Of a stretch of 22,079 nucleotides of DNA, positions 1 to 15,055 are shown in pieces. The notes under the pieces were generated by a model, which worked only from the letters and a program-made list of their open reading frames with translations, did no database searches and was not told where the DNA came from. The stretch is taken from contig JBBCJA010000025.1 of the NCBI GenBank assembly GCA_037189585.1, positions 1 to 22,079 on the forward strand, read 5' to 3'. Every line of letters starts with the position of its first letter. Position 1 is the stretch's first letter. This DNA comes from Selenomonadaceae bacterium (GTDB lineage: Bacteria > Vulcanimicrobiota > Xenobia > Xenobiales > JADMJV01). The position numbers were made by a program, and so were the translations under genes.

Positions 1-1
1 T

Positions 2-142
2 CGCTCGATCTTTTACGGAGTGGATGGCACAGGCATGGTACCTTTTGAAGGACTTCTGACTCCGGAAGAGGTTTGGGACGTGGTCCACTTCGTCCGCTCG
101 CGACAACGAAAGCTTGAAGCGTCCTCTCCACCACAGCCCTAA
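2..142 (+). CDS. C-terminal fragment of a monohaem c-type cytochrome (5' end outside window)
   Basis: The frame is open from the window edge to TAA at 140-142. It translates to ...GVDGTGMVPFEGLLTPEEVWDVVHFVRSRQRKLEASSPPQP*. This resembles the conserved C-terminal helix of class I cytochromes c (MPxF..LxxEEIxDVVxYVRS). Its stop overlaps the convergent kinase stop (CTAA). Confidence 0.45.
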   Translation, partial: RSIFYGVDGTGMVPFEGLLTPEEVWDVVHFVRSRQRKLEASSPPQP

Positions 143-1416
143 AGTCGCTCCAACTCGGCCAGCAAGGCCGTCCCGTCAGGCGGCCTGTCGCCCGGCTCCT
201 TAGCCAGCATCCGAGCCAAGAGGTCAGCGGTGGCCTGACTGACTTCGGGAGAATATTCTCTCACATCGATGGGCGTCTTGTTGAGATGGGCCATGGCAAG
301 CTCCAGCAGGGTGGATTCATCCTCAAACGGCGCCCGGCCAGCCAGCAACATGTACCAGGTGACCCCCAGGGAATAGATGTCGGAGGGTGGTGCGAGCTCT
401 TTTTCCGCGAACTGTTCCGGGCTCATGAATTCTGGGGTTCCGAGCAGCCGATTTTCCTGAGTCAGCCGACCATCTCGAGGGTCGCTGGGCCGAGCGAGTC
501 CAAAATCGACCAGCTTCACCGCTTCCTCGGTCAACAGAATATTGGAGGGCTTGATGTCGCGATGAATGACTCCGTGAGCATGAGCCGCGGCCAAGCCCAG
601 AGCTGTCTCCTTCACGACTCGCAGAGCCGCCTCGGGCGCTAGCTTGCCTTCTCGGTCCAGCCGGCTGGCCAAACTTTCTCCCTCCACGAGCTGCATGGCC
701 AGGAAATAGCGACCCTGCCACTTCCCGACTTCGTAAATCCCCACCACGTTCGGGTGATCGATCCGGGCGGCAAGTTTGGCCTCCCGGCGAAAGCGGGCCA
801 GAACCTCCGGATTCTCATCGAAATTCGCCTGCAAGATCTTAAGCGCGACTGGCCGATCCAAGGCCTGGTTCATGGCCCGATAAACCTCGCCCATCGCGCC
901 TTTGCCCAGGATTCCCTTCAAGCGATACGGGCCAAGTATCGTACCGGGCTGAAGATCGATCACCTCAGTCAAAACTTCGCCCGTTCCCCTACCGGAAAGG
1001 TCCGGAACCTCCACCACCTCATGCCCGGCCGCGAACCGCAAAAGGCTCTGAGCTCGGATACGCGCCTCGGTGACGGCGAGATCGATCGGTTTGGTCACAT
1101 AGTCGTTGGCCCCACCGGCGAAAGCGGCGACCACGTCCGGGCTCTCGTCCCGGGCGGAAATCATGATGACGGGAAGTTCCGTTTGAGTGAACCGCTCGCG
1201 CACTTTAGCCAGAACCTCCAAACCGTTGAGTCCGGGCATCTCGATGTCCAATAGCAGCAGATCGAAACGCCCGCTCAAAGCCAGCTCCAGGGCTTCATGC
1301 CCGTCGCCGGCCTGCTCCACATGGTAGCCGCAGTTGGTCAGATGCAAGCTGAGCACCGCCCGGCCGGTCTTGTAGTCGTCGGCGATCAGAAGGCGGACAG
1401 AATGATGCTGTTGCAC
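139..1416 (-). CDS. Response-regulator receiver domain fused to a Hanks-type Ser/Thr protein kinase
   Basis: N-terminal REC motifs are present: LLIADD, a phospho-acceptor Asp in LLLLDIEMPGLNG, and a conserved Lys in VTKPIDL. C-terminal kinase motifs are GKGAMGEVY (Gly loop), VALKIL, HRDIKPSNILL (catalytic loop), DFGLAR and GTPEFMSPE. The start codon is GTG at 1416..1414, two nt after the upstream stop, which suggests translational coupling. Confidence 0.85.
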   Translation of the reverse strand: MQQHHSVRLLIADDYKTGRAVLSLHLTNCGYHVEQAGDGHEALELALSGRFDLLLLDIEMPGLNGLEVLAKVRERFTQTELPVIMISARDESPDVVAAFAGGANDYVTKPIDLAVTEARIRAQSLLRFAAGHEVVEVPDLSGRGTGEVLTEVIDLQPGTILGPYRLKGILGKGAMGEVYRAMNQALDRPVALKILQANFDENPEVLARFRREAKLAARIDHPNVVGIYEVGKWQGRYFLAMQLVEGESLASRLDREGKLAPEAALRVVKETALGLAAAHAHGVIHRDIKPSNILLTEEAVKLVDFGLARPSDPRDGRLTQENRLLGTPEFMSPEQFAEKELAPPSDIYSLGVTWYMLLAGRAPFEDESTLLELAMAHLNKTPIDVREYSPEVSQATADLLARMLAKEPGDRPPDGTALLAELERL

Positions 1417-1418
1417 TG

Positions 1419-2411
1419 TTAGTAGGAATCGACGTTGCCCAGTCGGTCTCCTATAGCGAGGTTGGCTACCATAGCTTCCCGTAGCTCCCTCGTGGTTTGT
1501 GTCGTCGCGTAAAACGAGGCCTCTCTGGCCAGGCGCCCGACCGGATGGTCGATAGCGTGAGCTCGCCCTCCCACCGTGACCAGAGCCGCCCCAACGGCAC
1601 TACCGGCAAGACTGAGAGCTTGCAATCGCAAGGTTGTGGCGGTGGTCCAGGTTGGCTCTAGTTCCCAACGGTCCATCTTTTGATGCTGGCGCTCCAAGTG
1701 GTCAAGCAGCGCTTGCCTGGCGCTGTCCGGCAGGAACACCGCGCAGGCCCTGGCGACGCCCAGAGAGCGGGCCGACTGCATGACGGTGGCGTGCATATCC
1801 GCATGATTCATGCTGGATGCGTCATTTTCTAGGACGACCTCGGACCGTCGGACGGTGACCTCCTGGAGTCCCAGAGTCGCGGTCGCGGTGGCGTTCATCA
1901 CGGCAAGCCGAGGTGGTGTCCCGACCGAAACTCCGGGAACGTCCAGGCCCACGAGCGCCATCAAGAATCTCTCCTCTGAAGTCGCACCAGCGAGCAAGAG
2001 CTTTTCCATCAACCCCACTCCGGAAAACCACGGCCCTAACCCGCTGTAGACCAGCTCCTCACCGCACTCCGCGACTCTCACCGGTGAGGGGCTACGACGC
2101 AGATGGGCAAAACAGATCCCGATCCATTCCCGGCCTGTTTCGGCCGCGGGATAAAGGGGATGTCCAGCCTGCAAGAGTCGTCGGCACGAGGCTTCGTGTT
2201 GGCTGGCCAAAAACGCCGTCGTTCCGCATGCCGAGGACAGATGGTCGAGCAGGCGGCGGCGCTCGGCCGCATCGGCTCGGGCCGTGGTGGCGAAGTAGCC
2301 GGCTTGAGCTAAAAGCTCCAGCTGTCCTTTAGGGGGCGTGACGGAAAGGTCGACTTCCGTCGCGTTCGCTCGTATCTGGTGGCAGACATCCACCAAATCG
2401 TCAATCGTCAT
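1419..2411 (-). CDS. Acyl-CoA dehydrogenase-fold protein (divergent)
   Basis: The protein is 330 aa. Its blocks align to the ACAD N-terminal, middle and C-terminal domains: ELLAQAGYF, the segment GEELVYSGLGPWFSGVG...LLAGA (like GxxWxLNGxKxFIT), FLMALVGLDVPGVSVG (like FLVxxxxPGV), and HPVGRLAREASFY (like ERxxRDA). It lies 14 bp downstream of the VIT-vWA gene in the same operon. Confidence 0.5.
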   Translation of the reverse strand: MTIDDLVDVCHQIRANATEVDLSVTPPKGQLELLAQAGYFATTARADAAERRRLLDHLSSACGTTAFLASQHEASCRRLLQAGHPLYPAAETGREWIGICFAHLRRSPSPVRVAECGEELVYSGLGPWFSGVGLMEKLLLAGATSEERFLMALVGLDVPGVSVGTPPRLAVMNATATATLGLQEVTVRRSEVVLENDASSMNHADMHATVMQSARSLGVARACAVFLPDSARQALLDHLERQHQKMDRWELEPTWTTATTLRLQALSLAGSAVGAALVTVGGRAHAIDHPVGRLAREASFYATTQTTRELREAMVANLAIGDRLGNVDSY

Positions 2412-2425
2412 GGATTTTACGTATG

Positions 2426-5400
2426 TTAGGCAGCCGCCAGGTCGCGTCGACGTAGAGCGTCGAGAGCCAGGGCCACGTCCTCACTTTTCACCGGGCGGAA
2501 AGTTGGCGGTAGTCCGGGCCTGTGCATCAGGTCGAGCACTTCCAGTCCTCGCTGCTCGAGAACCTCGGTGATAAAGCGCACCTGCTCTTCAAGATCCGCC
2601 GCGTCCAGAGCCTGTCGGTTCTCGGCGTAGATCTCCGCGACATACTGAGCCAGGCGTTGACGGTCGAGCTCTCGATCGGCCAATCCGGAAACAAGCTCTA
2701 TCAAAAGCCACGATTCGTCCAAGGCTACGTACAGTCCACCCGTGACTTTCGCCACCGTCTCGAAGACCGCTTCGGCACCTCGGAAATTTCGAATCCCGCG
2801 GCAGCCCACCGTATGAACGGTAATACCCATCTCTCGACAGCCTTCGGCCTGAGTGTACCAGTGGCGTCCACAAGGGCAGCCCTCGGGGAATCCATCGCCC
2901 TCGGGTTCCACTCCGTGAGGAGGTGCATCCCCGACCATCACCACCAGACGGGCGGCCTCGCCATCCCAGTCCAGGTTCAACAGGTCGTGCAGTCCATCGG
3001 TGACGGCCTCCGGACCGTCTCCCCCACCGCTGGCTCGCATCCGTTGCACCGCGGCCGAAATCTCGTTCCAGTCGGAAGTCAAAGGCAGAACTCTGGTCAC
3101 GAAGGTCGCATCCTGGGGCGGATGGTCGCGGAAGGTCACCAGACCAAGCCGGAGCTCGGTGCACAGAGGAGAGCTACGCAAGACATTGATCAGCTCAAGC
3201 AAACGCTCTTGAACTTCCTGAATGTAGGGCCCCATGCTGCCCGTCTCGTCTATCAAAAAGACCAGATCGAGACGGCCAACGACGAGTTCCCGAGCTCTCG
3301 CCAGCTCCTCGGCGGAATAGAGAGCACGCTCTTTGTTGCCGGTAAGGCCAACCGGAGTTTGCAGGTTCTGACCCCTAGGCGGAGGTGGGGAGGGAATCGT
3401 CCACGAGCTGCAGGACCGCTTCGGAGGGGCGGAAGAGGCGGGAGGTTTATCATCGAAGAGGCCATGAACCGGCTCGTCCTCGCCCGAAAAGAGGCCTTCG
3501 ATGACGTAGTGGTCGACATCGAAGTTGCCATCCCCGGCGGAGGACGCACCGTCGTCGTCAAAGAGGCCTTCGGAGACGCTCAAATCCGGAGCAGCGGCGA
3601 AGGACTCGCTGTCGTCAAAGAGACTACTTTCGGAGACTGGGGAGAAAGCCGGTTCGGGAGCGGTCTCGCCGACCGCTCCGAAGAGGTCGCCGCCATCCGG
3701 GAAAGGCTCTTCGAAAACGCAATCGTCATCGACGTAAGCCTCTGGACTTGGCGATGGAGGTAGTGGCGGCGAGGCGCTTCTTAGCACCACAGTCTCGGGG
3801 AAACTCCTAGCCCCCAACATCGGGCGGTGGCCCAAAGTAGGCTTCTCCGAAGCAAAGGTTCGAGACACCAACCCCTTGCGTTCAGAGCGCGCTGAGTCAA
3901 GGGTACTCAGGCGCACCGGGCGGTCGGCCGGCGCGCTCTCGGCTCTCGGAGCCGATCTGGTCGCCGAGCGCCTCAGGCCGATGTCGGGTCCAACAGATTC
4001 CGCCGCGTCCACCGTGTGGGATGGTCCCTCGGGATCCACCGTCACCTCCTGGTCATCGGCCACCAACGCGGTGTACGGACTCATCAAGTGGTGCTTCAAG
4101 GCCAATCCCAGAGTCTCCAGGCGAACCTCGCTGAGACGCTCGGGATGGCGGACCAGTTGGTCCTGCAGCTCCTCGATCCTCTCACGAGCCCACACGCGCT
4201 CGATCCCGGGAGCTTCCTGGCTGTACTCGGGAAGGGTCAACCCCACCTCTTGCAAAAACGGTGTCCCGTCCGCGTTCGTCCCACGCACGCGTAGGGTGGC
4301 TGGGCCCTCACCGATGAATCGTCCGGTCAGTCTCAGAATCTGTCCAGAGAAAAGTTCGCGGCCGCCCCTGGGATAGATGTCCATCCCCTGCCCTTGCCCG
4401 CTCTCCACCTCCACCGTGACATTGGAGAGGATCGGGGCGGCCTGGGCCACTCTTTGGGCGAAACGCTCCAGCAGATGGGCCTCCCCACCCTGACTGACCT
4501 CAAAGGCGCCCCGGCCAAAACGAGCCAGCTTGTCGATCAGGTATCGGTTGGGCGTATTGCCCACACCCATCACGTAGAGTCTGGTGTCCTTGAGCCACTT
4601 GGGCAGTTCGCGCAGCAGCCGTCCCTCGTTTCCAACGGCACCGTCGGTGATCAAGACCGCGACCCGAGCTCGTCCATTTCCGGTCTCGGACCCCGCGGCG
4701 CGGAGCGCGACCTCAAGCTCGGTTCCTCCTTTGACCTTCTGTCCCTCGAGAAACTCCAGCGCGCGGACTTTGGAAGTCTCGTCGCAGGGCAACCACTCGG
4801 ACGAGAGTTCCAAAAGCTCGTGATGAAACGCGATCAGACGGAACCGGTCCGAAGGAGAAAGCTTGGAAAGGCAACTAGAAACAGCCTCCACAGCGGCCGT
4901 CAATCGACCAACCGAGGCCGAGAGATCGACCAAGAAAACGACGTCCTTACCTTCCGTGGTCTTCTCCTCCGGCTGGACCCTTTGATACACGCCGCAGTAG
5001 TCGCACTGCCAAGCATGACCTAATCCCGGAATCTCCGAGACCGCCTCTTTCGAACCCATGGGCGCTCCACAGTTGCCGCAACTATAGCCCTCCACGTTGG
5101 TGGTTTCCTGGGCTCCGAGCGCGACTGGGGCGGGGATGGTCAGGGCAAAAGTTCCGGGTTTGTCGAGGGCCCGCTCGTACCACACTTGTGGAAGTAGTCC
5201 CCGGTTCTGACAAGGCCAGACCAAAACGAAATCACGATTAGCGACTTTCTCCTCTGGGTCCAGGCTAACCCGAAAGCGGTCACCGTGAGTCTCGACTTTC
5301 ACCGCGTGAGAAGGGGAATAAGGAGCCGTCCGGCCGTCCACGGCCCTGAGCTCGAACTCGAGTGACACCGGACTCTGGCGCTCGGTCGATCGCGGGCGTG

Positions 5401-5932
5401 GGGGCCGGATCCGAGCGCCGTCCGCGACCTCGGTCGTTCCATGTCCCTCCGGCATGCCGGAATAGTAACGTTCGGAAGCCACCATCGGAAAAGCGAAACG
5501 CCACTCGCCGAAATCGTAAGCCACCGGTTCCTGATACTCCATCAAGACCTCGATGGTCGCGCCAGCGGAGATGTTGGCCACGGATAGAGTGAAGAGGTTC
5601 GGTCGCTCTTGCTCTAAAAGGGTGGCGGCGCGGCCTTCCGAGCGGGCCTTCTCGTAAACCCGGCGGGCCTCTTCCTTCTCTTTGACCACCGCCTTGACCA
5701 CCCGATCGGCGATGCGAAACTCCATACGGAAGACGGAGCCTTGATGGGGAAGCGGAAAGAGATAAGTGGCCTCTAAAGTCTCGTTTGTAGGGTTACGAAA
5801 ACTTTGCCGCACCTCCACCTGGGCCAGCGGTCCTCGGACCGAGGCTTTGACTTTCGTCCATTCCAGGGGAAGAACGCGCCCGTCGAGCGTCTGTAGAGTG
5901 CCTTCACTAATTCTGGGTTCAGTGGCTTGCAT
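2426..5932 (-). CDS. Large cytoplasmic VIT - zinc ribbon - vWA - disordered acidic-repeat linker - vWA (Cys-cluster) protein
   Basis: The ORF is open from a TTG at 6145, but that overlaps the upstream gene. The ATG at 5932..5930 (M72) lies 44 bp after the upstream stop and gives about 1168 aa. An ATG at 6028 is an alternative start. The VIT domain is aa 80-230 with the hallmark TYLFPLP. A CxxC-x20-CxxC zinc ribbon is at aa 357-384. vWA-1 has MIDAS DLSASVG at aa 405. A Ser/Pro-rich, acidic disordered region spans aa 700-940. vWA-2 begins LVFLIDETGSMG at aa 961 and has an inserted CPCGRHWYTQAEGCREMGITVHTVGC cluster. There is no signal peptide. Confidence 0.8.
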   Translation of the reverse strand: MQATEPRISEGTLQTLDGRVLPLEWTKVKASVRGPLAQVEVRQSFRNPTNETLEATYLFPLPHQGSVFRMEFRIADRVVKAVVKEKEEARRVYEKARSEGRAATLLEQERPNLFTLSVANISAGATIEVLMEYQEPVAYDFGEWRFAFPMVASERYYSGMPEGHGTTEVADGARIRPPRPRSTERQSPVSLEFELRAVDGRTAPYSPSHAVKVETHGDRFRVSLDPEEKVANRDFVLVWPCQNRGLLPQVWYERALDKPGTFALTIPAPVALGAQETTNVEGYSCGNCGAPMGSKEAVSEIPGLGHAWQCDYCGVYQRVQPEEKTTEGKDVVFLVDLSASVGRLTAAVEAVSSCLSKLSPSDRFRLIAFHHELLELSSEWLPCDETSKVRALEFLEGQKVKGGTELEVALRAAGSETGNGRARVAVLITDGAVGNEGRLLRELPKWLKDTRLYVMGVGNTPNRYLIDKLARFGRGAFEVSQGGEAHLLERFAQRVAQAAPILSNVTVEVESGQGQGMDIYPRGGRELFSGQILRLTGRFIGEGPATLRVRGTNADGTPFLQEVGLTLPEYSQEAPGIERVWARERIEELQDQLVRHPERLSEVRLETLGLALKHHLMSPYTALVADDQEVTVDPEGPSHTVDAAESVGPDIGLRRSATRSAPRAESAPADRPVRLSTLDSARSERKGLVSRTFASEKPTLGHRPMLGARSFPETVVLRSASPPLPPSPSPEAYVDDDCVFEEPFPDGGDLFGAVGETAPEPAFSPVSESSLFDDSESFAAAPDLSVSEGLFDDDGASSAGDGNFDVDHYVIEGLFSGEDEPVHGLFDDKPPASSAPPKRSCSSWTIPSPPPPRGQNLQTPVGLTGNKERALYSAEELARARELVVGRLDLVFLIDETGSMGPYIQEVQERLLELINVLRSSPLCTELRLGLVTFRDHPPQDATFVTRVLPLTSDWNEISAAVQRMRASGGGDGPEAVTDGLHDLLNLDWDGEAARLVVMVGDAPPHGVEPEGDGFPEGCPCGRHWYTQAEGCREMGITVHTVGCRGIRNFRGAEAVFETVAKVTGGLYVALDESWLLIELVSGLADRELDRQRLAQYVAEIYAENRQALDAADLEEQVRFITEVLEQRGLEVLDLMHRPGLPPTFRPVKSEDVALALDALRRRDLAAA

Positions 5933-5975
5933 TTCCACAGCTTCGAGCTTGAAGCGATCGACCCCTTGACCAAAA

Positions 5976-7211
5976 TCAACGTGCGACGACTTGAAGACTA
6001 TGGTAGATCTCACCGCTTTGAATCTCATTAAGAAACGACTCTCCGCGCAGACGTTCCCGTGTCGGATAGCTCTTGAGATACTCGTGAGCGCGCACGACGA
6101 GCGCTCGGTCGCGCACCTTGTCGGCGGCTTCGGTGAGATCCTCAAAATAGAGAGGGTAGTCCGCTCCCAAATATTCCACCACCGGAGGTAGAGGGTTCAC
6201 CAAAATCGGCGTGGTTCTCGCGATACATTCCACAATCGCGTTGTTCGCCGAGGAGTCGTAAAGGTGAACGAAAGCCACGTTCTCGCTCAGCCAGCTATCA
6301 TACTCCTGGTTGGTTAGCCCCACCACGCGACGGACGTTGGTCCAGTCGGGAGTTCCTTCGTGGGAAAGGATCAACTGGAAAGTGTCTTCCAACCCCTGCA
6401 GACCCGAGGGCACAAGCCAGATCTTCTCATAGTCGTCATAGACCGGCAGGTCAAAAATGCTGATCAGCCGGCGCAGCCACCATCCCACCTGAATAATTTT
6501 CGGCGAGGTGTTCTTGAGGAAGCGTTCCGGATCAAATTGCGCCTCGGGAAACTCCGTGGGGTGCAAGACGACTTCCACCGGTTTCCCTGTCCTCTCGCGC
6601 AGCCAAGTCGCCAAGTATTCCGACAGAGTGTAGAACCCCCGACAGTTCGGGAGACTCTCCTGGAAGGCGGGATGACTAAGAATCTGCTCTGGAGAGCCCG
6701 TACTTAGAGGATACCAGGACGGCATCTCCAGCGGATTGTGCAGAAAGCCGACCCAGTCGCGCCGATAGGGCGGCTTTCGGCCTTCCCAACATCGGCCCGC
6801 GTAACGCGCCATGGCGAAGCTGTTTTCCAAGAAGCCGTCGAGCAGAATTCCACCTTCGTTATGCAAGGGTCTCAAATGGTGCAGCGCGTAGGCCCAGCCA
6901 CTTCGATGGTGGGAAAAGCGCCGCTGACGGCGCAGGCAGAAGCGCCCCTCCGGATGGTTCACCAACTCATTGTCGGCCAGGACCTCTTCACACAGTTCGC
7001 TCAGCATGAAGAACTCCGAGTGGTCCTTGGGATAACGCCGGCAGATCTCGAGTGACTCCTGGGCCTCGCCTTCCATCAGAAGAAGCTCCGCCAGAAGCCT
7101 CCAGGCCGGTTCGTACCCGGGCTCTTTTTCCACCACCTGCCGACAGGCGGCGATCGCGGTGGGCAGGTTGCCCTTGGCGGCCCAGGCACGAGCTAAGATA
7201 AATCCTTTCAT
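5976..7211 (-). CDS. TPR-repeat protein with C-terminal domain of unknown function (possibly GT-B-like fold)
   Basis: The protein is 411 aa with an ATG start at 7211 that overlaps the upstream stop (ATGA). The N-terminus has TPR-like helices (ARAWAAKGNLPTAIAACRQVVEKEPGYEPAWRLLAELLLMEGEAQ). The C-terminal block LYDSSANNAIVECIARTTPILVNPLPPVVEYLGADYPLYF resembles the nucleotide-sugar-binding half of GT-B glycosyltransferases. I saw no sulfotransferase PAPS motifs. Confidence 0.5.
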   Translation of the reverse strand: MKGFILARAWAAKGNLPTAIAACRQVVEKEPGYEPAWRLLAELLLMEGEAQESLEICRRYPKDHSEFFMLSELCEEVLADNELVNHPEGRFCLRRQRRFSHHRSGWAYALHHLRPLHNEGGILLDGFLENSFAMARYAGRCWEGRKPPYRRDWVGFLHNPLEMPSWYPLSTGSPEQILSHPAFQESLPNCRGFYTLSEYLATWLRERTGKPVEVVLHPTEFPEAQFDPERFLKNTSPKIIQVGWWLRRLISIFDLPVYDDYEKIWLVPSGLQGLEDTFQLILSHEGTPDWTNVRRVVGLTNQEYDSWLSENVAFVHLYDSSANNAIVECIARTTPILVNPLPPVVEYLGADYPLYFEDLTEAADKVRDRALVVRAHEYLKSYPTRERLRGESFLNEIQSGEIYHSLQVVAR

Positions 7212-8281
7212 AACAAAGTTTCCAAGAGACGCGGCACCGCTTCGACATCGCTGCCCAACTCTAAAACATAGGCCGGCGCCTGCCGCAAAATCGTGGCCAT
7301 TCGCGCCAAACTGGCCTGCCCGGTGCCGGCAAGTTGAAACAGGGTTGTCGGCGCCAGGGCCAAAAGAGCCGCTGACCCGGACAATTCCTGAAGTCGACTC
7401 TCCCTGGCTTGGACCGGCGGTATGCGAGGTACGACGACCGCCTTAAGGGGAGCCTCGTTCAATACCTGTTGGGGCCGATGAGCGTGAACGTCCAGCAGAA
7501 TCTTATCTCCTTCCTCGCGTTGCCGATTCTCCACCGCGGCCGACCACTCGGGGAAACGGTCAAGGTCCATCTCTCCGACCAGTTTGGCCGTGCCGTAGAG
7601 ACACCAGATGCGCCCCTGTCCAGCCAGGCAGTAGTCGTCGGCCAGGTAGCCCATCCCGGCTCTAAGACACGACAGAGCCGTGCTGGACTTTCCCGAGCCC
7701 CCGGCCCCGGTCAGAAGTATGGCGCCGTCGGCCGAACCGACCGCCGCGGCGTGGAGATACTGCAGTCCCTGTCCTTCGGCCCACCAGTTCAGGATCGTCT
7801 GTAGTGGTGAACCCAACTCCCAATAAGGGATCTTCTTCGCGTCCTCGACCCAGTAGAGAGCCTGAGCTCTCTGTCGATCCAGGACACTCAGGATTTTGCA
7901 TGGCCCCTGACGATAGACGGTGAAAATCCTGTCGTCATTGAAACCTCTCAATTCGTGCCTGGCGTCTAGGGCCTCATAGATCGAATGATTGACGGCCGAG
8001 AAGAGAGCGCGCACCAGCAGGGGCAGATAGCGACCTTCTCCCCCACCGTCCCAAAGGGAGACAGTTAAGGAAGGAGAGGCATCGATCTGTTTCACTTTCC
8101 AAGGGCGAAGAGCTGGTACCAGGCGCTCCAAAGGCTCAGCCCCGGCACTCAGCAGACTGATCGTTTGTCCACCTAAAGCTCCGTCCCAGCGAACCTGCCC
8201 CAGCTCCGTCTCGGCCTGACGATACGTCCGAGAGAGAATGTCAAAAAACTCGACTCGTTCCTGTTCCACAGTGAAGGTCAA
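7208..8281 (-). CDS. HprK-related P-loop kinase (HPr kinase/phosphorylase C-terminal-domain homologue)
   Basis: ILLTGAGGSGKSSTALSCLRAGMGYLADD matches the HprK Walker-A/kinase core (vLitGpSGsGKSelAL..rGh.LVaDD). There is no in-frame ATG near the 5' end. The start is TTG at 8281, overlapping the GT2 stop as TTGA, or GTG at 8269. The stop overlaps the next gene's ATG. Confidence 0.7.
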   Translation of the reverse strand: MTFTVEQERVEFFDILSRTYRQAETELGQVRWDGALGGQTISLLSAGAEPLERLVPALRPWKVKQIDASPSLTVSLWDGGGEGRYLPLLVRALFSAVNHSIYEALDARHELRGFNDDRIFTVYRQGPCKILSVLDRQRAQALYWVEDAKKIPYWELGSPLQTILNWWAEGQGLQYLHAAAVGSADGAILLTGAGGSGKSSTALSCLRAGMGYLADDYCLAGQGRIWCLYGTAKLVGEMDLDRFPEWSAAVENRQREEGDKILLDVHAHRPQQVLNEAPLKAVVVPRIPPVQARESRLQELSGSAALLALAPTTLFQLAGTGQASLARMATILRQAPAYVLELGSDVEAVPRLLETLL

Positions 8282-8982
8282 GTTAGAGACTCCTGAACCT
8301 GACGACGCCTTCGCAAGGCGGCCAGGACGACCTTGGCATAGTCTTGCCTGGCCTCCGGCTTCAAGCGACCCGAGTTGTGAGCGTGCAAGCGGCGCCGAAG
8401 AACCAGTTCCGGTAAGAGCGCGAAACGCGCCCCGTTCTCTTGCGCCCGCAAAACCCAGTCGACAAATTCCGCTGCCCGATACTCGGGGGTGAAGAGCCCC
8501 GTTCTTTCAAAAACTGAACGCCTCACCATAAAAGTCCCAGGCAGCTGGGCCTGCTGACGACGCGAATCGTGCGGGAATACCCCAGGAGGGTCGCTAAACT
8601 GCTCCGCCTCTCCAAAAACTCCATCGAATTCCGGTCGCGAGGACAGATAGTTCCATCCGGCGGTCAAGCGGCCCGGCAACATCAAGTCGTCAGCATCCAT
8701 GAAGGCCAGCCACTCTCCGAGTGCCGCCTTGACTCCAAGATTTCTCGCCGCGCTGGCGCCCAGATTGTCCTGACGAAAGCATTGTACCCGCGGAAACTCT
8801 CGAGCTATCTCGAGAGTCCCATCAGTGGACCCGTCGTCGATGAGCAAAATCTCCCTCACGGGAGAAACGCTGGCGAGAACGCTCTCAAGGCATGCTCGAA
8901 GATACTTTTCCCCGTTATAGACTGGAATAATAACGCTAATATCGAGCATATTCAGCGACTCTAAGACGCGACGGTAGGCCAT
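8278..8982 (-). CDS. Family-2 glycosyltransferase (GT-A fold)
   Basis: ISVIIPVYNGEKYLRACLESV...ILLIDDGSTDGT...FRQDNLGASAARNLG...FMDADD carries the canonical GT2 motifs, including DxD. The start is ATG at 8982 or at 8949, and it overlaps the PqqD-like gene's 3' end. Confidence 0.75.
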   Translation of the reverse strand: MAYRRVLESLNMLDISVIIPVYNGEKYLRACLESVLASVSPVREILLIDDGSTDGTLEIAREFPRVQCFRQDNLGASAARNLGVKAALGEWLAFMDADDLMLPGRLTAGWNYLSSRPEFDGVFGEAEQFSDPPGVFPHDSRRQQAQLPGTFMVRRSVFERTGLFTPEYRAAEFVDWVLRAQENGARFALLPELVLRRRLHAHNSGRLKPEARQDYAKVVLAALRRRRQVQESLT

Positions 8983-9401
8983 CCCTCGGCGGCGACGTCG
9001 TGAACGGGGTCCAGAAGAAGAAGACCTTCCATATCCTCGTGGCGAGCCAATACTGGCGGATGGAATTTGAGTCTGTCCCGAGTGTGGCCAGCCAAAGTCT
9101 CGTGCTGTTCGAGCACCGGCCCCTCGCTGAGCAGCCCCTCGGAAACCAGCTCTGTCAGAAATGTCTCCACCGCTCCAAGAGCCTGATCCTGTTCGACATC
9201 GTAACTTTCTAACAATAGCCCGCTCAGGGCGTGAGCGGAAAGCGACTGTTGCAAACCAGCCCAGATCAAAGCTCCCGCATCGGTCAGGCTATAATAGTGA
9301 CCCATCTTGAGGTTGACGACGACAACCTCCCCGTCGAGTGTTTCATGAACCACATCGTCCGAATTTATAACGAACCCCATCGGCGAAGTTTTAACCTCCA
9401 T
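8961..9401 (-). CDS. PqqD-family / RiPP recognition element (RRE)-like protein with C-terminal extension
   Basis: FVINSDDVVHETLDGEVVVVNLKMGHYYSLTDAGALIWAGLQ...DVEQDQALGAVETFLTELVSEGLL is the PqqD/RRE signature, a beta-strand then winged helix. The ATG at 9401 has an AGGAAT Shine-Dalgarno 9 nt upstream. The ORF could extend to an ATG at 9458. About 55 extra C-terminal residues follow the domain. Confidence 0.65.
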   Translation of the reverse strand: MEVKTSPMGFVINSDDVVHETLDGEVVVVNLKMGHYYSLTDAGALIWAGLQQSLSAHALSGLLLESYDVEQDQALGAVETFLTELVSEGLLSEGPVLEQHETLAGHTRDRLKFHPPVLARHEDMEGLLLLDPVHDVAAEGWPTVAS

Positions 9402-9456
9402 AAGATCGATTCCTGGCTCGCAGGTCGGAATTCCTTGATGTTGAACGAGGCGACCC

Positions 9457-11154
9457 ATGGTCGGCCGACTTCTACAACTTCTCGACAGTCGTGGTCGACG
9501 GCAGGCCGTGCTGTTAGCCCTTCTCAGCGCGGCCTCGGCTGCTCTGGAGTTAGGGGCGGCCGCCAGTATGGTGGCATTTATGTCAGCCGCCGCGCGTCCC
9601 GACCTTTTGAGCCGTGTTTCCTACTATCAGCATCTTGGGCAGCCCAGCCTCTCGAGCTTGATGATCGGGCTAGGAGTTCTTTGTCTGGTCACCTTGTCTT
9701 CGAGCAATCTTCTGATGAGCCTATGTAACCTGCTCAGCCTGAAGTTTTCTCATGAACAGCAACGCCGCCTGTCGACCCGCCTCTTTCGTCTCTACCTCAA
9801 CCAGCCGTACGAATGGCACCTGCGCCGGCATCCGTCAACGCTTGTTTATCACCTCGGTCAGGCTCGCCAGCTCGCGCCCCAGGGCTTTCTACCGCTTCTC
9901 CAGATCGTTTCTCGTTTTTTTGGCATTCTGGTTCTCGTGGGCGCGCTGCTCAAACTCCGCCCTTTGGTCACGATCGTGGGACTCCTGACCCTAGCGGTCA
10001 TCTATGCGGGAGTCTTCCGTTTCTGCCGCAAACGCTCTCTTGCGACCTACGCGGCGGAATGGGACATCGAGCAGTCGATGGGTCGAACAATAGCCGAGCC
10101 GATGGTAGGGATGCGAGATGTTCGTTTAGCCGCGGGTGAGTCGAGCTACGAAAGCTCCTACTCCGAGCAGCTTGGCGGGATCGCCGAGCAGCAGCGCACA
10201 CGACTGTTCTACTCGGAGGCTCCCCGACTCTTCTTGCAAACCCTGGTCTACTCCGTGCTGCTGGGCTCCGTCGTCCTCCTGGCTATTCTCTATGAAGATG
10301 GAGCTAAAGTGGTGGCTGAGGCGACCTTTTATGCCATCATCGCCTATCGACTGTTGCCGCTGGTTCAGCAAGTTTTGTCGAGCCTGTCGCAACTCGAGCA
10401 CGGAGAGACCATCGAGCGGATGCTTCGCGATGAGCTCAAAGCCTCCATCGCGACCCTCCCCCAGCCGTCGAAGTCGGCGCGACCGCTGGACCGAGAGTGG
10501 AGCTTGCGTGATGTCGACTTCTCTTACGACGACAGGTCCCCCCTCTTTCGAAATCTCAACTTGATCATTCCGCGGGGAGCGTGCATCGGAATCGCGGGTC
10601 CCAGCGGGCACGGGAAGACGACGCTGATCAATCTGCTGATCGGGCTGTTGACTCCTCAGCGAGGAGATATCTTAGCCGACGGGCGTCCCCTCGAAGGCTC
10701 GGAACTTCGCGCCTTCTGGACAACAGTGGGATACGTCCCCCAGGACATCTTTCTGACTGATAACAGCCTGCTCCACAACATCACGCTGGGACAGCCCCTC
10801 GACCATGAACGCGTCCGGGAGGTCGCCAGGCTTTCTCGGCTCGATGAATTCGCCGAAACGCTCCCCCAAGGTTACGAGACAAAAATCGGAGACCGAGGGT
10901 CACGCCTGAGCGGCGGCCAGCGTCAACGACTCGGTATCGCGCGAGCGCTATATCGCCGACCGAGCATCCTGGTTCTCGATGAAGCCACGAGCGCGTTGGA
11001 CCGCGGCCTCGAGGCCGATGTTATCGCTACCATTCGAAGTCTGGCCGGAACCCACACTATTCTCATGGTCGCCCATCAAAGAGCTAGTTTGAACTGTTGT
11101 GACCGCATCTACCGCGTGGAGAAAGGAGAGCTATCCCCCGAAGATGAGCTCTGA
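9457..11154 (+). CDS. ABC exporter, fused transmembrane and ATP-binding domains (peptide-exporter type)
   Basis: The protein is 565 aa. The N-terminal half is hydrophobic with about 6 TM segments. The C-terminal NBD has Walker A GPSGHGKTT, signature LSGGQRQR, Walker B ILVLDEATSALD and an H-loop. A GAGG lies 6 nt upstream of the ATG at 9457. Confidence 0.85.
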   Translation: MVGRLLQLLDSRGRRQAVLLALLSAASAALELGAAASMVAFMSAAARPDLLSRVSYYQHLGQPSLSSLMIGLGVLCLVTLSSSNLLMSLCNLLSLKFSHEQQRRLSTRLFRLYLNQPYEWHLRRHPSTLVYHLGQARQLAPQGFLPLLQIVSRFFGILVLVGALLKLRPLVTIVGLLTLAVIYAGVFRFCRKRSLATYAAEWDIEQSMGRTIAEPMVGMRDVRLAAGESSYESSYSEQLGGIAEQQRTRLFYSEAPRLFLQTLVYSVLLGSVVLLAILYEDGAKVVAEATFYAIIAYRLLPLVQQVLSSLSQLEHGETIERMLRDELKASIATLPQPSKSARPLDREWSLRDVDFSYDDRSPLFRNLNLIIPRGACIGIAGPSGHGKTTLINLLIGLLTPQRGDILADGRPLEGSELRAFWTTVGYVPQDIFLTDNSLLHNITLGQPLDHERVREVARLSRLDEFAETLPQGYETKIGDRGSRLSGGQRQRLGIARALYRRPSILVLDEATSALDRGLEADVIATIRSLAGTHTILMVAHQRASLNCCDRIYRVEKGELSPEDEL

Positions 11155-12301
11155 CCAGACCTATCCGTTCTTTCCTCAAAAAGATGCGCTCGACTTATTA
11201 AGGGCGGCCCTCGACCCCGATCATCAAAGAGCCCATCAGGCCTGGCTACGCTGGAGACAACTCCACACGCTTCAAGCCTGCGACATCAAGATGAACCGCC
11301 TGATGCCGCTCATCTATCGTCGCTTTCAGCAGGGCGGCCTGGATCCCGACGACCACAGAATCTTAAGAGGGGTTTACCGGTACAACTGGACCCGAAACCA
11401 GCTGGCCCTACGCCAAGCGCGGACGGTCTCCCTACAGCTCCAGGCGGCCGGAATCCAGGTCTTACTTCTCAAGGGGCTCCCGCTCATTCTTGACTACTAT
11501 CGCGACCTAGGTGTCAGGCCTATGTGGGATTTCGATCTTTTAGTCCATCCGGAACGTCAACGAGAAGCGCTAGAACTTCTGTCCAGGCTGGACTGGCATA
11601 ACCACGAGCCTTGCCACGAGGTATGGATAGGCCACGCCTGCGGGTTGCAGGGTCCCGGCAACATCTCGCTTGACCTTCACTGGTTCGTCATGCACTCCAG
11701 TCGTTGGGAGGGCGCCGACGACGACTTTTGGGAGCGTTCGGAAAAGCTCTCGCTTCGCGAGCCCGGTAAAGAGCTGGGTGGTCCCGTCGTGAGGGCTCTT
11801 TGCCCCGAACACCAGCTCATCCATGTCTGTATTCACGGAGCTCGCTTTGATTCGAACCAGGACCTCGGCTGGGTCAGCGACGCTTATCACATCCTGACCA
11901 ACCGAGAGTTGGACTGGGAGCTCGTCCTCGAATCGGCGAAGCGGCACCGAGTTGTCTCGGCCCTTCACCTGGCTCTGTCTTACCTGTGCGACAAACTGCA
12001 TGCCCCCGTTCCCGAGGCTGTGATGGTGCGGCTTGGCGCTGCCCCTAAAACCTGGAGCGACCGACTCTACTTTCATCTCGCGGTCAAAGGGGGTCCCCTG
12101 AATTTCTGGTTGATGCCGGTCCTCGACTATCTGCGCTGGCAGCCCCAACCGACTCTTCTCAACTTCCTTGAATATCTTCGCCAACGCTGGTTTCTGGCCA
12201 GAACTTTCCACATTCCGTTCTCGGCCGCCCAGCGAATAGCGATGCGTGCCGTGAAATGGGCTCAGAATCGAATCTCGGCGGATTCGAAGCCCTCTCGCTG
12301 A
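11144..12301 (+). CDS. Uncharacterised nucleotidyltransferase (PF14907-like, lasso/HprK-cluster-associated family)
   Basis: LLLKGLPLILDYYRDLGVRPMWDFDLLV fits the Pol-beta-superfamily motif G..x..D.D of the uncharacterised nucleotidyltransferase family. The ATG at 11144 has AAAGGAGAG 14 nt upstream and overlaps the ABC gene's end by 11 bp. The ORF is also open from 11099. Confidence 0.6.
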   Translation: MSSDQTYPFFPQKDALDLLRAALDPDHQRAHQAWLRWRQLHTLQACDIKMNRLMPLIYRRFQQGGLDPDDHRILRGVYRYNWTRNQLALRQARTVSLQLQAAGIQVLLLKGLPLILDYYRDLGVRPMWDFDLLVHPERQREALELLSRLDWHNHEPCHEVWIGHACGLQGPGNISLDLHWFVMHSSRWEGADDDFWERSEKLSLREPGKELGGPVVRALCPEHQLIHVCIHGARFDSNQDLGWVSDAYHILTNRELDWELVLESAKRHRVVSALHLALSYLCDKLHAPVPEAVMVRLGAAPKTWSDRLYFHLAVKGGPLNFWLMPVLDYLRWQPQPTLLNFLEYLRQRWFLARTFHIPFSAAQRIAMRAVKWAQNRISADSKPSR

Positions 12302-12329
12302 GACAAGACGAAGCGACGGAGAGAAAGGA

Positions 12330-12368
12330 GATGGCTTTTCTTCGTCAGAAAGGGCCATCTTGCTATGA
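12330..12368 (+). other. 12-codon upstream ORF (MAFLRQKGPSLL*) whose TGA overlaps the ATPase ATG (ATGA)
   Basis: ATG at 12330 is preceded by GGAG at 12316-12319 and AAAGGAG at 12323-12329. The stop at 12366-12368 overlaps the ATPase start at 12365-12367 in the +1 frame. Confidence 0.3.
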
Positions 12369-15055
12369 ATTCCCCTCCTGTCTCTTGGCATAGCCTTGAC
12401 TTTTTGGCTGTGGCCGAGAGTCAGAAGAGTTCTCTTGAGGGCCTGTCTCGCGAACAAGCGCGACAACGCCTGAAGACTCATGGCGCCAACGAGCTTTCCT
12501 CATTGCCTCCCCCAAACGCCCTTTGGGTGCTGTTACACCAGTTCCAGAGCCCTCTCATCTATATTCTTTTGGCGGCCGCGGTGGTGACCTTTCTGCTGGG
12601 AGACTACGCCGACTCGACACTGATCCTGGTAGCGGTCAGCCTGAACGCGGTCATCGGCTTCATTCAAGAATGGAAGGCCGAACATTCCGCTCGAGCCTTG
12701 ATGAAGCTGGTCTCGCCCAAGGCTCGGGTTGTACGCGATGGAAGGGAGCAGACCATCGAAAGCAAGGGACTTATTCCCGGGGACGTGGTGCTCTTGGAAT
12801 CCGGTGTTCGGACGCCGGCCGATCTCAGACTTTTCCAGACCACGACTCTTGCCATCAACGAATCGACTTTGACCGGAGAGTCGATTCCAGTCCACAAAGG
12901 GACCGAGGCGGTGGCCGAAACCGCTCCTTTGGCCGAAAGGCGCTGCATGGCCTACGCCGGAACCGTGGTCACCGCCGGGCGTGGCCGAGGGATCGTTGTC
13001 ACCACGGGAGCCAGAACGGAGCTTGGCACCATCGCCGCGGTGGTCCGAGAGGAAGTCTCGCCAGAAAGCCCGTTGCAACGGCGAATGACTAACTTCGCCC
13101 ACGTCATCGGATATTCCGTCGGGATCGCCGCGGTTTTGGCCTTTGTCGTCGGCATAGCCTCGGGAAAGACAGCTTCCGAGATGGTCCGTGTGGGAGTGGC
13201 GCTTGCCGTGGGAGCGGTCCCTGAAGGCTTACCGGTGGTCTTGATCATCACCCTGGCTTTGGGTGTTCGGCGCATGGCCAAACGTAACGCTATCGTACGA
13301 CGTCTTCCCGCGGTAGAGACTTTAGGTTGTACCAGTGTCATCGGGTCCGACAAGACAGGCACCTTGACGGAAAACCGAATGACCACCATGGATCTGTGGA
13401 CAAGCGATGGGTTCACCAAGGCTCCTTCGGAACGCACCTCGCCGGAGCATCTGGCCTCTCCTTTGAGAGAGACTCTAGAAGCCGGGGTCTTCTCGAACGA
13501 GGCCGAGGTCGATTGGTCCTCCGAGGAGCTCTCCGGTGACGGAGATCCCACCGAAACCGCCCTCTTAGTGGCGGCCTACAAGTTTGGTCTCGAGCCCGCC
13601 CAGGCGCGCCAGCAATGGAAAGAGATCGCGACCATCCCGTTTGAGTCCGAGCGCCAGTTCGCGGCCAGCATCCGCCGCGCTGACGAGGGAGATATACTTT
13701 ACGTCAAAGGTGCTCCAGAGGTGGTGTTAGGCATGTCCAGTCGGCTCCGTAGCGCCGACGGAACGACCGATCTCGATCCCGAAGCCGTTCTGAAAGCCGC
13801 CGACGAAATGGCTTCCAATGGATTACGGGTCTTGGCCATGGCCCGCGGTCGCGCCGAGCTCAAAGGAGAGGGAGGCGAGGTCCTGCCTCCTCGAGAGCTG
13901 ACCTTTCTCGGCTTGCAGGGTATGCTGGACCCTCCCAGGGCCGAGGTCAAAGACGCCATCGAAGGCTGTCGTCAAGCCGGGATCCGGGTGGTAATGATCA
14001 CGGGCGATCATGCACGGACAGCCGTCGCCATCGGAGCGAAGCTAGGCATCGGGGGTGACAACCCCGAGGTATTGACGGGGCGCGAGCTCGACGCCATGTC
14101 CGAAAAAGAGCTACAGGAGCACGCTGAGACGGTCTCGATTTTCGCCCGCGTCTCTCCTCAACACAAGCTGCAGGTGGTCCACGCTTTGCGCGCTCTCGGT
14201 CACGTGGTGGCCGTGACGGGTGACGGGGTCAACGATGCTCCTGCTTTGAAAGCCGCCGATATCGGGGTGGCGATGGGCAAGAGTGGAACGGACGTGGCTC
14301 GTGAAGCCGCGGACATGATCCTGGCCGACGACAATTTCGCCAGTATCTATGCCGCCGTCCACGAAGGTCGGGTGACCTTTGCCAATGTTCGCAAGGTCAC
14401 GTTCTTTTTGGTCTCCACCGGAGCCGCCATCGTCATCATGCTGTTGGCGGCTCTGGTCCTCGGCTGGCCCCTTCCCGTACTTCCCGCCCAGATTCTTTGG
14501 ATCAACCTGGTCACCAGTGGCCTGCAGGACTTAGCCCTGGCCTTCGAGCCGGCCGAGCCCGGTCTCGATGAGAAACCTCCCCGTGATCCCAAAGAAGGGG
14601 TTGTCTCCAAGCTGCTGTGGGAGCGTACGGTGTTGGCGGGCTTCGTCATGGCTATCGGGACCCTGGCCTTGTTCCGCTGGGAATATCTCCGTACGGGCTC
14701 TTTGATAGAGGCCCAAACTATCGCCCTGACCAGCCTGGTTATCTTCATGTTCTTTCACGTGGGGAACGCCCGCTCCGACACCCGCTCACTTTTGCAGATC
14801 AGCCCCATCTCTAACCCACACTTGTTTACGGTTTCGGCGGTCTCCCTCGCGGTCCACGTCGGATGCCTTTATTTCGCTCCGACTCAAGCCTTTCTGTCGG
14901 TTCATCCTCTGGATCCCCCAGCTTGGATAAGGTTGATCGCGGTCGCATCCTCGATCCTCGTGGTCGTGGAGGCTCACAAATGGATCCGGCGGCGTTGGCC
15001 ACTCGAAGGCTCTTTTCGTCAGCGCGAGCGCAAGCACCGGGCCTGGCCCTCCTAG
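12365..15055 (+). CDS. P-type cation-transporting ATPase, P2 (Ca2+-ATPase-like) subtype
   Basis: The protein is 896 aa. It has TGES, the phosphorylation site ICSDKTGTLTENRMT and the hinge TGDGVNDAPALKAADIGVAMGKSGTDVAREAADMILADDNF. It has 10 predicted TM helices and an N-terminal cation_ATPase_N helix. Confidence 0.9.
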   Translation: MNSPPVSWHSLDFLAVAESQKSSLEGLSREQARQRLKTHGANELSSLPPPNALWVLLHQFQSPLIYILLAAAVVTFLLGDYADSTLILVAVSLNAVIGFIQEWKAEHSARALMKLVSPKARVVRDGREQTIESKGLIPGDVVLLESGVRTPADLRLFQTTTLAINESTLTGESIPVHKGTEAVAETAPLAERRCMAYAGTVVTAGRGRGIVVTTGARTELGTIAAVVREEVSPESPLQRRMTNFAHVIGYSVGIAAVLAFVVGIASGKTASEMVRVGVALAVGAVPEGLPVVLIITLALGVRRMAKRNAIVRRLPAVETLGCTSVIGSDKTGTLTENRMTTMDLWTSDGFTKAPSERTSPEHLASPLRETLEAGVFSNEAEVDWSSEELSGDGDPTETALLVAAYKFGLEPAQARQQWKEIATIPFESERQFAASIRRADEGDILYVKGAPEVVLGMSSRLRSADGTTDLDPEAVLKAADEMASNGLRVLAMARGRAELKGEGGEVLPPRELTFLGLQGMLDPPRAEVKDAIEGCRQAGIRVVMITGDHARTAVAIGAKLGIGGDNPEVLTGRELDAMSEKELQEHAETVSIFARVSPQHKLQVVHALRALGHVVAVTGDGVNDAPALKAADIGVAMGKSGTDVAREAADMILADDNFASIYAAVHEGRVTFANVRKVTFFLVSTGAAIVIMLLAALVLGWPLPVLPAQILWINLVTSGLQDLALAFEPAEPGLDEKPPRDPKEGVVSKLLWERTVLAGFVMAIGTLALFRWEYLRTGSLIEAQTIALTSLVIFMFFHVGNARSDTRSLLQISPISNPHLFTVSAVSLAVHVGCLYFAPTQAFLSVHPLDPPAWIRLIAVASSILVVVEAHKWIRRRWPLEGSFRQRERKHRAWPS

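Follow-up and report, generated by a model that had tools for sequence, protein, structure and literature searches.

Five x-L-F-x motifs lie within 80 residues (window 3449..3694, minus strand) of the disordered linker of a protein with two von Willebrand factor A (vWA) domains. The protein is encoded on a stretch of 22,079 nucleotides (nt) of contig JBBCJA010000025.1 from a Selenomonadaceae bacterium; the whole of this stretch is referred to as the window, and the protein as the query. As far as sequence can tell, the array is real, non-random, and lineage-restricted, and it consists of short linear motifs in the disordered tether of a two-vWA scaffold. A docking role is putative, and we would place its probability somewhat short of even.

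Acidic Leu-Phe motifs in the linker

The five motifs, with amino acids (aa) counted from the ATG at 5932, are as follows.

3674..3694, minus strand: motif 1, GGDLFGA, aa 747-753; GDFFGA in the 83%-identical orthologue
3611..3631, minus strand: motif 2, ESSLFDD, aa 768-774; missing from the closest orthologue
3554..3574, minus strand: motif 3, SEGLFDD, aa 787-793; within an indel relative to the closest orthologue
3482..3502, minus strand: motif 4, IEGLFSG, aa 811-817; DDLFSGG in the closest orthologue
3449..3469, minus strand: motif 5, VHGLFDD, aa 822-828; AHDLFGD in the closest orthologue

A sequence-only reading of this DNA had listed five such motifs, and a check of the translation found every one of them exactly as written. 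It had also pointed to a DNA repeat at about 3488 and 3563. This is the 12-mer AAGAGGCCTTCG, of which the window contains two copies (3489 and 3561) where about 0.01 would be expected by chance, and which is common to motifs 3 and 4. Four further acidic-Phe sites (VFEE, PFPD, ESFA, and NFDVD) are located within the same acidic block of the linker.

The array is more than chance, and it is kept as a class in the orthologues. When the 241-aa linker was shuffled 20,000 times, five or more LF dipeptides were obtained in 0.07% of the shuffles (p = 7e-4), and five or more matches to [DEGSA]LF[DEGS] in none of them (0/20,000; p <5e-5). A six-frame scan of 142 kb, comprising the window and seven related loci, revealed three or more such motifs per 120 aa only in the vWA gene and its orthologues.

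Repetition at the DNA level is limited. Neither for the query nor for L001 did Tandem Repeats Finder report a tandem repeat over the motifs, and the motif codons of the query contain only imperfect DNA pairs of 15-29 nt. One of these, a 29-nt pair that is 72% identical, joins motifs 2 and 3. Since these two motifs are missing in the closest orthologue, the copies seem to have been made by short local duplication. The array-bearing genes in general exhibit only pairs of 25-31 nt at the motif codons, with 70-83% identity. The DNA copies have diverged, yet the LF core is retained, which points to old duplications. A slippage-type DNA tandem repeat was ruled out, since there are no head-to-tail copies of high identity, only these short pairs of 70-89% identity.

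Two other segments of the protein deserve mention. A loop of the folded N-terminal module (aa 524-530; 4343..4363, minus strand) reads RELFSGQ; its family consensus is PDLFGGQ, with L527 invariant, and it resembles the linker motifs DLFG and GLFSG. Between motifs 3 and 4, the segment DGNFDVDHYVIE (aa 801-812; 3497..3532, minus strand) fits positions 1, 3, 5, and 12 of an EF-hand loop (D, N, D, and E). It contains neither the usual EF-hand Gly at position 6 nor a hydrophobic residue at position 8, and it is missing in the closest orthologue.

Recurrence of the array and constraint on its flanks

A database search yielded 635 homologues, of which the best 120 were used; all of them display the VIT-vWA-linker-VWA_4 arrangement. 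The named homologues belong to Myxococcota (Polyangium, Vitiosangium, Archangium, Chondromyces, and Haliangium), and P0006, which is 53% identical to the query, derives from a Candidatus Xenobia metagenome-assembled genome. A search of other genomes for the motif had been proposed as a check, and the array was found to recur in six orthologues with 49-83% identity to the query. The seven array-bearing proteins (the query, P0002, P0004, P0005, P0006, P0008, and P0016) contain two to six copies each, amounting to 24 instances. Shuffling the linkers of the orthologues gave p<0.02 for the LF count in five of the six and p<=0.005 for the motif in its context in all six.

The enrichment concerns the Leu-Phe pair. 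Phe directly follows Leu at 25 of the 74 linker Phe residues in the seven array proteins versus 18 of 694 in the 113 other homologues; Leu thus precedes 34% of linker Phe in the array proteins, compared to a Leu frequency of 6.9%. The 24 instances share the consensus [DE]-x-[DSGA]-L-F-[GDS]-[DE]. Position -1 is occupied by D, S, G, or A in 23 of them and position +1 by G, D, or S in 21. Lys, Arg, and Pro are all absent from -1 to +1, and the sole basic residue from -1 to +2 is one Arg at +2 (LFTVR).

Across the orthologues the motifs are found at non-homologous positions and with variable spacing, in linkers that are otherwise unalignable. Between the query and P0002, which are 83% identical overall, linker identity decreases to 58%; motifs 1, 4, and 5 stand out as conserved islands with ΦF cores, and motifs 2 and 3 fall in indels. 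P0003, which groups with these two proteins at 100% bootstrap, keeps both domains but has a linker of 122 aa with zero LF motifs.

Such turnover raises the possibility that short local duplications produced the motifs incidentally, in an acidic spacer that evolves fast and serves for tethering only. The short imperfect DNA pairs at motif codons are signs of duplication, and the absence of motifs 2 and 3 from P0002 and of the whole array from P0003 would be expected on this account. A search of 5.8 billion protein clusters with the 100-aa acidic block alone, which gave zero scoring matches, is also in line with it, but that search missed even the query's own entry and is little informative. We consider this explanation improbable, given that seven proteins whose linkers are unalignable show LF enrichment independently, with constrained flanks, that the LF core is kept in DNA copies now only 70-83% identical, and that no tandem repeat was found.

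A disordered linker with segregated charge

Three features of the linker are relevant here; structure predictions were made with AlphaFold2 (AF2) and are described by the predicted local distance difference test score (pLDDT).

3338..4012, minus strand: inter-domain linker, aa 641-865 (225 aa); AF2 pLDDT <50, no secondary structure predicted
3443..3742, minus strand: acidic block, aa 731-830, holding all five LF motifs
3812..3880, minus strand: basic segment RKGLVSRTFASEKPTLGHRPMLG, aa 685-707, the local form of a Gly-capped amphipathic motif, with two [KR]PxLG mini-motifs

The linker had been described from the sequence as a disordered, Ser/Pro-rich region of about 240 aa. Disorder and composition were borne out, and the length was corrected to 225 aa. 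Disorder prediction, which had been proposed as a check, gave a pLDDT of <50 over aa 641-865 in two AF2 runs. With regard to a tract described as S/T/P-rich, Ser (13.8%) and Pro (13.3%) are indeed abundant but Thr accounts for just 4%, so that the tract is better called Ser/Pro/Arg-rich. In the full-length model, the linker has a pLDDT of about 30 and the motifs of about 30-36. In the second run, which comprised the acidic array and the C-terminal module, only scattered residues reached about 50, among them FDDS, FDD, and FDD of motifs 2, 3, and 5, and no motif went further than just over 50. These values are marginal and were not taken as evidence for docking. On a charge-hydropathy plot the acidic block falls in the disordered zone, and the linker as a whole is borderline.

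Charge is segregated into three blocks. The first (aa 641-730) is basic and rich in Arg, Ser, and Pro, with a net charge of +5. The acidic block follows, and the 100-aa stretch from aa 736 to 835 carries a net charge of -25, lacks Arg, and consists of 10% Phe. The third block (aa 836-872) is Pro-rich and basic, with a net charge of +4. Its Pro-rich segment aa 836-865 (3338..3427, minus strand) terminates in PPPRGQNLQTPVG. Many homologues share an RGQ/QGQ...Q.P element immediately before the C-terminal domain; this element may represent another conserved motif of the linker or else extend that domain at its N-terminus.

Similar modules are distributed throughout the family. Of the 120 homologue linkers, 82 contain an acidic block (net charge of -8 or lower over 30 aa), versus 8 of 120 N-terminal modules. 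The Gly-capped basic amphipathic pattern occurs in 66 of 120 linkers, with GGFFSKVKEAFG, GGLLGKLTDAVSRL, and KRGGGFFSKVKEAFG as examples. The query version is RKGLVSRTFASEK, followed by two KPxLG mini-motifs, which also recur among near relatives; the segment RKGLVSRTFASEKPTLGHRPMLG could be a membrane-binding or protein-binding helix. The order of acidic and basic modules varies between lineages. About 20 homologues from scattered lineages have a single acidic-aromatic motif of the "PAPAMDFM(E/P)xE" type (MDFM motif). In a branch of the Myxococcota, an FHA domain, sometimes together with a double zinc ribbon, is inserted at the start of the linker:

P0093, aa 662-725, and P0095, aa 668-729 and 936-984: FHA and zinc-ribbon inserts, paralogous Myxococcota branch

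The resulting fusion of Zn finger, vWA, and FHA is reminiscent of archaeal ArnA together with ArnB. As these insertions are located at the same site, interaction modules appear to have been placed in the linker repeatedly. The LF array resembles a general acidic-hydrophobic module that has been regularised in one lineage.

A linker of this type could also act through charge blocks and "stickers" in the absence of specific docking, by tuning the dimensions of the tether, by masking the upstream basic amphipathic segment through electrostatic contacts inside the molecule, or by driving weak self-association or condensation. The three charge blocks, the family-wide occurrence of acidic blocks and of the amphipathic motif, the lineage-dependent order of modules, the freedom with which motif number and spacing vary, and the absence of docking from the AF2 models all agree with such a role. 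A compositional role, however, needs no specific dipeptide, whereas Leu is strongly preferred before Phe and positions -1 and +1 are constrained; moreover, five stickers are few for phase separation. Overall, we rate it as unlikely.

Protein architecture and metal sites of the flanking domains

The order of elements in the protein is VIT domain, Zn-ribbon, vWA domain with split beta-sandwich and helical pair, disordered linker, second vWA domain, and C-terminal helical domain. The vWA domains contain metal-ion-dependent adhesion sites (MIDAS).

2426..5932, minus strand: whole vWA gene, 1168 aa from ATG 5932 (open reading frame and translation; Pfam VIT, VWA, and VWA_4)
5534..5857, minus strand: VIT domain, aa 26-133 (Pfam PF08487, E = 5e-33)
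4991..5080, minus strand: CxxC...CxxC zinc ribbon, aa 285-314; C285, C288, C310, and C313 invariant in 120 homologues
4502..4945, minus strand: first vWA domain, aa 330-477 (Pfam VWA, VWA_2, and VWA_3), with an intact MIDAS (D336-L-S338-A-S340, D430)
2723..3277, minus strand: second vWA domain, VWA_4 type (Pfam from aa 890), aa 886-1070, with an invariant metal site
2429..2710, minus strand: C-terminal helical domain, aa 1075-1168 (AF2 helices, pLDDT 80-98)

The open frame extends upstream to a TTG at 6145, from which the sequence-only reading had numbered residues (+71). We took ATG 5932 as the start because it fits the N-terminus common to the 120 homologues in the family alignment. The database entry of the protein, P0001 (1200 aa), starts 32 codons upstream of this family-consensus ATG and overlaps the upstream gene. 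No signal peptide was found in the 1168-aa protein and its four-Cys zinc ribbon is invariant, so it is most likely cytoplasmic. Using the alignment of 120 sequences, AF2 folded both halves confidently (predicted template modelling score, 0.76).

In structure searches, the best match of the N-terminal module was ITIH1 (6fpy; E = 5e-32), followed by archaeal ArnAB (E = 1e-14), a Catenulispora vWA protein, and Sec23/24 (E ~1e-10). Both MIDAS sites (DLSAS...D430 and DETGS...DGPE...DAPPH) are invariant across the 120 homologues, the second being composed of D895-E-T897-G-S899, D972-G-P974-E975, and D1002-A-P-P-H1006. The top 50 Foldseek matches of the C-terminal vWA domain in the PDB were all integrin beta chains. 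HMMER placed its three metal motifs (DxTxS, DxPE, and DAxxH) in register with those of integrin beta-6 and beta-8 at weak E values of 0.03-0.6, and the Pfam Integrin_beta match was sub-threshold. These results point to integrin beta-I-like features.

The family of this C-terminal domain comprises 10,631 members at E<1e-3 among 1.84 billion representative proteins, most of them stand-alone proteins of 300-450 aa. It reaches Thorarchaeota (P0142, Asgard) and chytrid fungi (P0238 and P0257, Rhizophlyctis rosea). Of the best 150 relatives of this domain, 144 were new proteins, and among these LF-type repeats (SLFG/FG) were found in only two, both chytrid; in P0238 and P0257 these repeats come after the homologous vWA domain.

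A putative docking role and its candidate receptor

That the motifs behave as short linear docking motifs, as the sequence-only reading had proposed, is in keeping with their predicted disordered setting, fixed LF core, constrained flanks, and retention in six orthologues. From these features, we infer that the five motifs bind a partner as functional, multivalent acidic-hydrophobic docking motifs on a flexible tether; we advance this tentatively, as a reading that may well be correct but to which we give slightly less than even weight. According to this proposal, the motifs occupy the acidic block of a charge-patterned tether, and this tether joins the two MIDAS-bearing vWA modules of a cytoplasmic scaffold. 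Each motif would bind in an extended form, with its Leu-Phe pair inserted into a hydrophobic pocket; contacts of the flanking carboxylates would be electrostatic or mediated by a metal. Avidity would result from the presence of several copies, and copy number would shift via short local duplications and deletions.

Which domain would receive the motifs is more doubtful. The candidate that we favour, though at low confidence, is a vWA domain with its MIDAS site. This domain could belong to the protein itself, which has two, and act within or between molecules, or it could belong to a partner encoded elsewhere. The integrin-beta-type signatures at the metal site of the adjacent C-terminal domain speak for such a receptor. 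Asp or Glu is present at +1 or +2 after the Phe in 16 of the 24 motif instances. MIDAS sites typically capture an acidic residue of an extended or unstructured peptide (PMC7159879). In the Mg-chelatase subunit ChlD/BchD, the C-terminal integrin-I (vWA/MIDAS) domain is preceded by an acidic polyproline linker (PMC6604950). It is on this capture of acidic residues and on the pairing of linker and MIDAS in ChlD that the docking-motif proposal for the LF array is based.

The more specific idea, that the array consists of built-in, integrin-ligand-like acidic peptides engaging the protein's own invariant MIDAS sites, likewise seems to us rather unlikely. Were it correct, binding within one molecule would produce a metal-dependent autoinhibitory latch, and binding between molecules would produce multivalent head-to-tail assembly of the cytoplasmic vWA scaffold. 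Other family members would then rely on the single MDFM motif and on their acidic blocks for the same purpose.

Several observations weigh against a docking role. The array is known from seven proteins only, and an LF array is missing from the 113 more distant homologues, in which the same MIDAS sites are invariant. In P0003 both domains are retained and the entire array is gone, which indicates that the array is dispensable. Nor does the array mark a monophyletic clade: this possibility was rejected, as neighbour-joining gave a bootstrap value of 20% with array-less lineages nested inside. Either an ancestral array underwent several reductions, or arrays arose more than once. No motif was docked within the chain in AF2 models of the full-length protein or of the acidic array with the C-terminal module, a negative result that is weakened by AF2 modelling without metal ions. 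No clade-specific basic patch to receive the array was detectable beyond phylogenetic signal. Finally, no partner gene is conserved beside the vWA gene across ten compared loci, which included those of the query, P0002, P0004, P0005, P0006, and P0016 and of three more distant homologues. Co-variation at a receptor site could not contribute to this assessment. In the array proteins it highlighted 71 folded-domain columns, mostly shared with array-less sisters and P0003, and because of this sharing the signal is phylogenetic and uninformative.

Comparison with known systems

In the integrin beta-I ligand motifs RGD, LDV, and LDT, an acidic residue of a flexible peptide coordinates the MIDAS metal. 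The query resembles this arrangement in its short unstructured motif, where Asp or Glu accompanies a hydrophobic residue, and in the register of its C-terminal metal motifs. It differs from integrins in that it is a bacterial, cytoplasmic protein without an alpha subunit, that the Asp pair of the site adjacent to MIDAS (ADMIDAS), as read off the sequence, is absent, and that its motif has residues in the order L-F-D, not L-D-V or R-G-D.

ChlD provides a parallel for the linker in a cytoplasmic bacterial protein, namely, an acidic, Pro-containing disordered segment directly upstream of a MIDAS vWA domain, and some homologues of the query are automatically annotated as "Mg-chelatase subunit ChlD." The N-terminal module of the query, however, is composed of VIT, Zn-ribbon, and vWA rather than AAA+. 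No MoxR/ChlI partner or AAA+ gene was found nearby in the compared loci, save for a weak AAA_3 match 6 kb off in one of them. To our knowledge, LF motifs have not been described for ChlD linkers. A ChlD-type system was ruled out by the VIT-vWA N-terminus and the absence of an adjacent AAA+ gene.

ArnB-like cores consist of a vWA domain, a split beta-sandwich, and a helical bundle, occur with a zinc finger and FHA, and are under Hanks-kinase control (PMC12852372). The N-terminal fold of the query (Zn ribbon, vWA, and split beta-sandwich) is similar to the ArnA/ArnB and Sec23/24 cores (PDB 8s05 and 5a8j), and FHA is fused in the paralogous branch of the vWA family, as it is in ArnA. Sec24 additionally offers the example of a platform that binds short linear motifs. 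Unlike ArnB, the query has ITIH1 as its best match and lacks FHA, and ArnB is regulated by phospho-Thr in the helical bundle, not by an acidic LF array.

DPF/FxDxF and FFAT are eukaryotic acidic-aromatic adaptor motifs. With motifs of this kind the array shares multiple aromatics in an acidic disordered tract and the prospect of avidity for one receptor domain. Others are the W-acidic and Y-acidic motifs that bind kinesin light chain, which are recognized by TPR domains (PMC6214655). In the query, Phe comes directly after Leu and [LM]xW[DE] is absent. A W-acidic/TPR reading was rejected because Trp is lacking and the neighbouring TPR region is only about 60 aa long, adjoins two of the seven array loci, and is unrelated to the TPR-annotated neighbour in Polyangium.

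Two further candidates were discarded. The beta-clamp-binding motif is QL[SD]LF, and it shares the (S/D)LF ending and the occurrence in disordered regions of bacterial proteins; Gln is found three residues before Leu in none of the 24 instances, and the gene context gives no hint of replication or repair. FG-nucleoporin GLFG repeats do not fit either, as there are just five copies, with strongly acidic spacers (about -25 over 100 aa) rather than uncharged polar ones.

Gene neighbourhood and possible modification of the linker

The linker Ser residues, including those next to LF, could be phosphorylated by the Ser/Thr kinase (STK) with an N-terminal receiver (REC-STK) or by the HprK-like protein, or glycosylated by GT2, which would switch partner binding. 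The relevant features of the window are as follows; the modification genes resemble those for ribosomally synthesized and post-translationally modified peptides (RiPPs).

139..1416, minus strand: REC-Ser/Thr kinase with N-terminal response-regulator receiver
5976..7211, minus strand: "TPR" gene; TPR over about 60 aa at the N-terminus, the remaining 330 aa glycosyltransferase-like
7208..12301, both strands: RiPP/lasso-like set of HprK-related kinase, GT2, PqqD-type chaperone, ABC exporter, and NTP_transf_5
11099..15055 and 139..2411: segments with extra genes compared to contig L002

The genes for PqqD, GT2, HprK-like, "TPR," vWA, a 330-aa protein, and REC-STK are closely packed on one strand, separated by 2-43 nt or overlapping. 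The HprK-like protein matches HprK-related kinase A, and the PqqD protein matches a lasso-type peptide chaperone (E = 1.8e-14, below cutoff). Together with GT2, the ABC exporter, and NTP_transf_5, they resemble a separate peptide-modification set of the RiPP/lasso type, although no cyclase, leader protease, or precursor peptide was seen within 7208..12301. As its start overlaps the HprK-like stop by 4 nt, the "TPR" gene probably belongs to this set and not to the vWA gene. The TPR-annotated gene beside the query is unrelated to the one in Polyangium, and the downstream genes are likewise unrelated. The 330-aa protein is acyl-CoA-dehydrogenase-like; its gene and REC-STK lie downstream of the vWA gene and are absent at the locus of the closest orthologue.

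A role of the linker as substrate of the HprK-like, STK, and GT2 proteins, which had been suggested from their joint presence in this DNA, was not supported, since these enzymes are not co-conserved with the array. The RiPP-like set, and with it HprK-like and GT2, adjoins the vWA gene only in the query and P0002, i.e., in two of the seven array loci, and P0004, P0005, P0006, P0016, and the three distant homologues have unrelated neighbours. REC-STK adjoins one array locus. A kinase 43% identical to it was found 5.7 kb from P0016 (L005 16709..17943), which could reflect loose synteny or coincidence. A Ser/Thr kinase is located within 7 kb in 4 of the 10 loci, a frequency that is not clearly over background for kinase-rich genomes.

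The close packing of these genes, the Ser content of the linker, and the kinase near P0016 are what favour modification of the linker, along with the phospho-Thr-binding FHA domain inside the linker of the paralogous branch and the control of the structurally related archaeal ArnA/ArnB by Hanks-type kinases (PMC12852372). Set against the sparse distribution of these enzymes, the low Thr content, and the phosphorylation of ArnB on Thr of its helical bundle rather than on a linker, they leave this explanation very improbable. By analogy, through the FHA branch and ArnAB, a general link of the family to Ser/Thr signalling is plausible.

Some further details of the window were recorded. Compared to the closest related contig (L002), NTP_transf_5 and a P-type ATPase are extra genes between the ABC exporter and a PP2C phosphatase. 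The PqqD start is listed at 9458, back-to-back with the divergent ABC gene at 9457; the orthologue is 26 aa shorter, and the true start thus probably lies near 9380. For positions 1..9700, scans for promoters and terminators yielded signal at chance level only.

Implications for the two-vWA family

Short linear motifs have a well-developed biology in eukaryotes but have been little charted in bacteria. The array adds a statistically supported, multivalent acidic-aromatic example that evolves by gain and loss of copies in the tether of a two-vWA family. This family is cytoplasmic, widespread, and uncharacterised, with named members in Myxococcota and one member from a Candidatus Xenobia genome. 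If the motifs are non-functional, they represent only a lineage-specific quirk of a disordered linker. If they are MIDAS ligands, they would offer the first mechanistic handle on the family and would reveal integrin-style recognition of acidic peptides inside bacterial cells, a counterpart of the binding of RGD and LDV to MIDAS.

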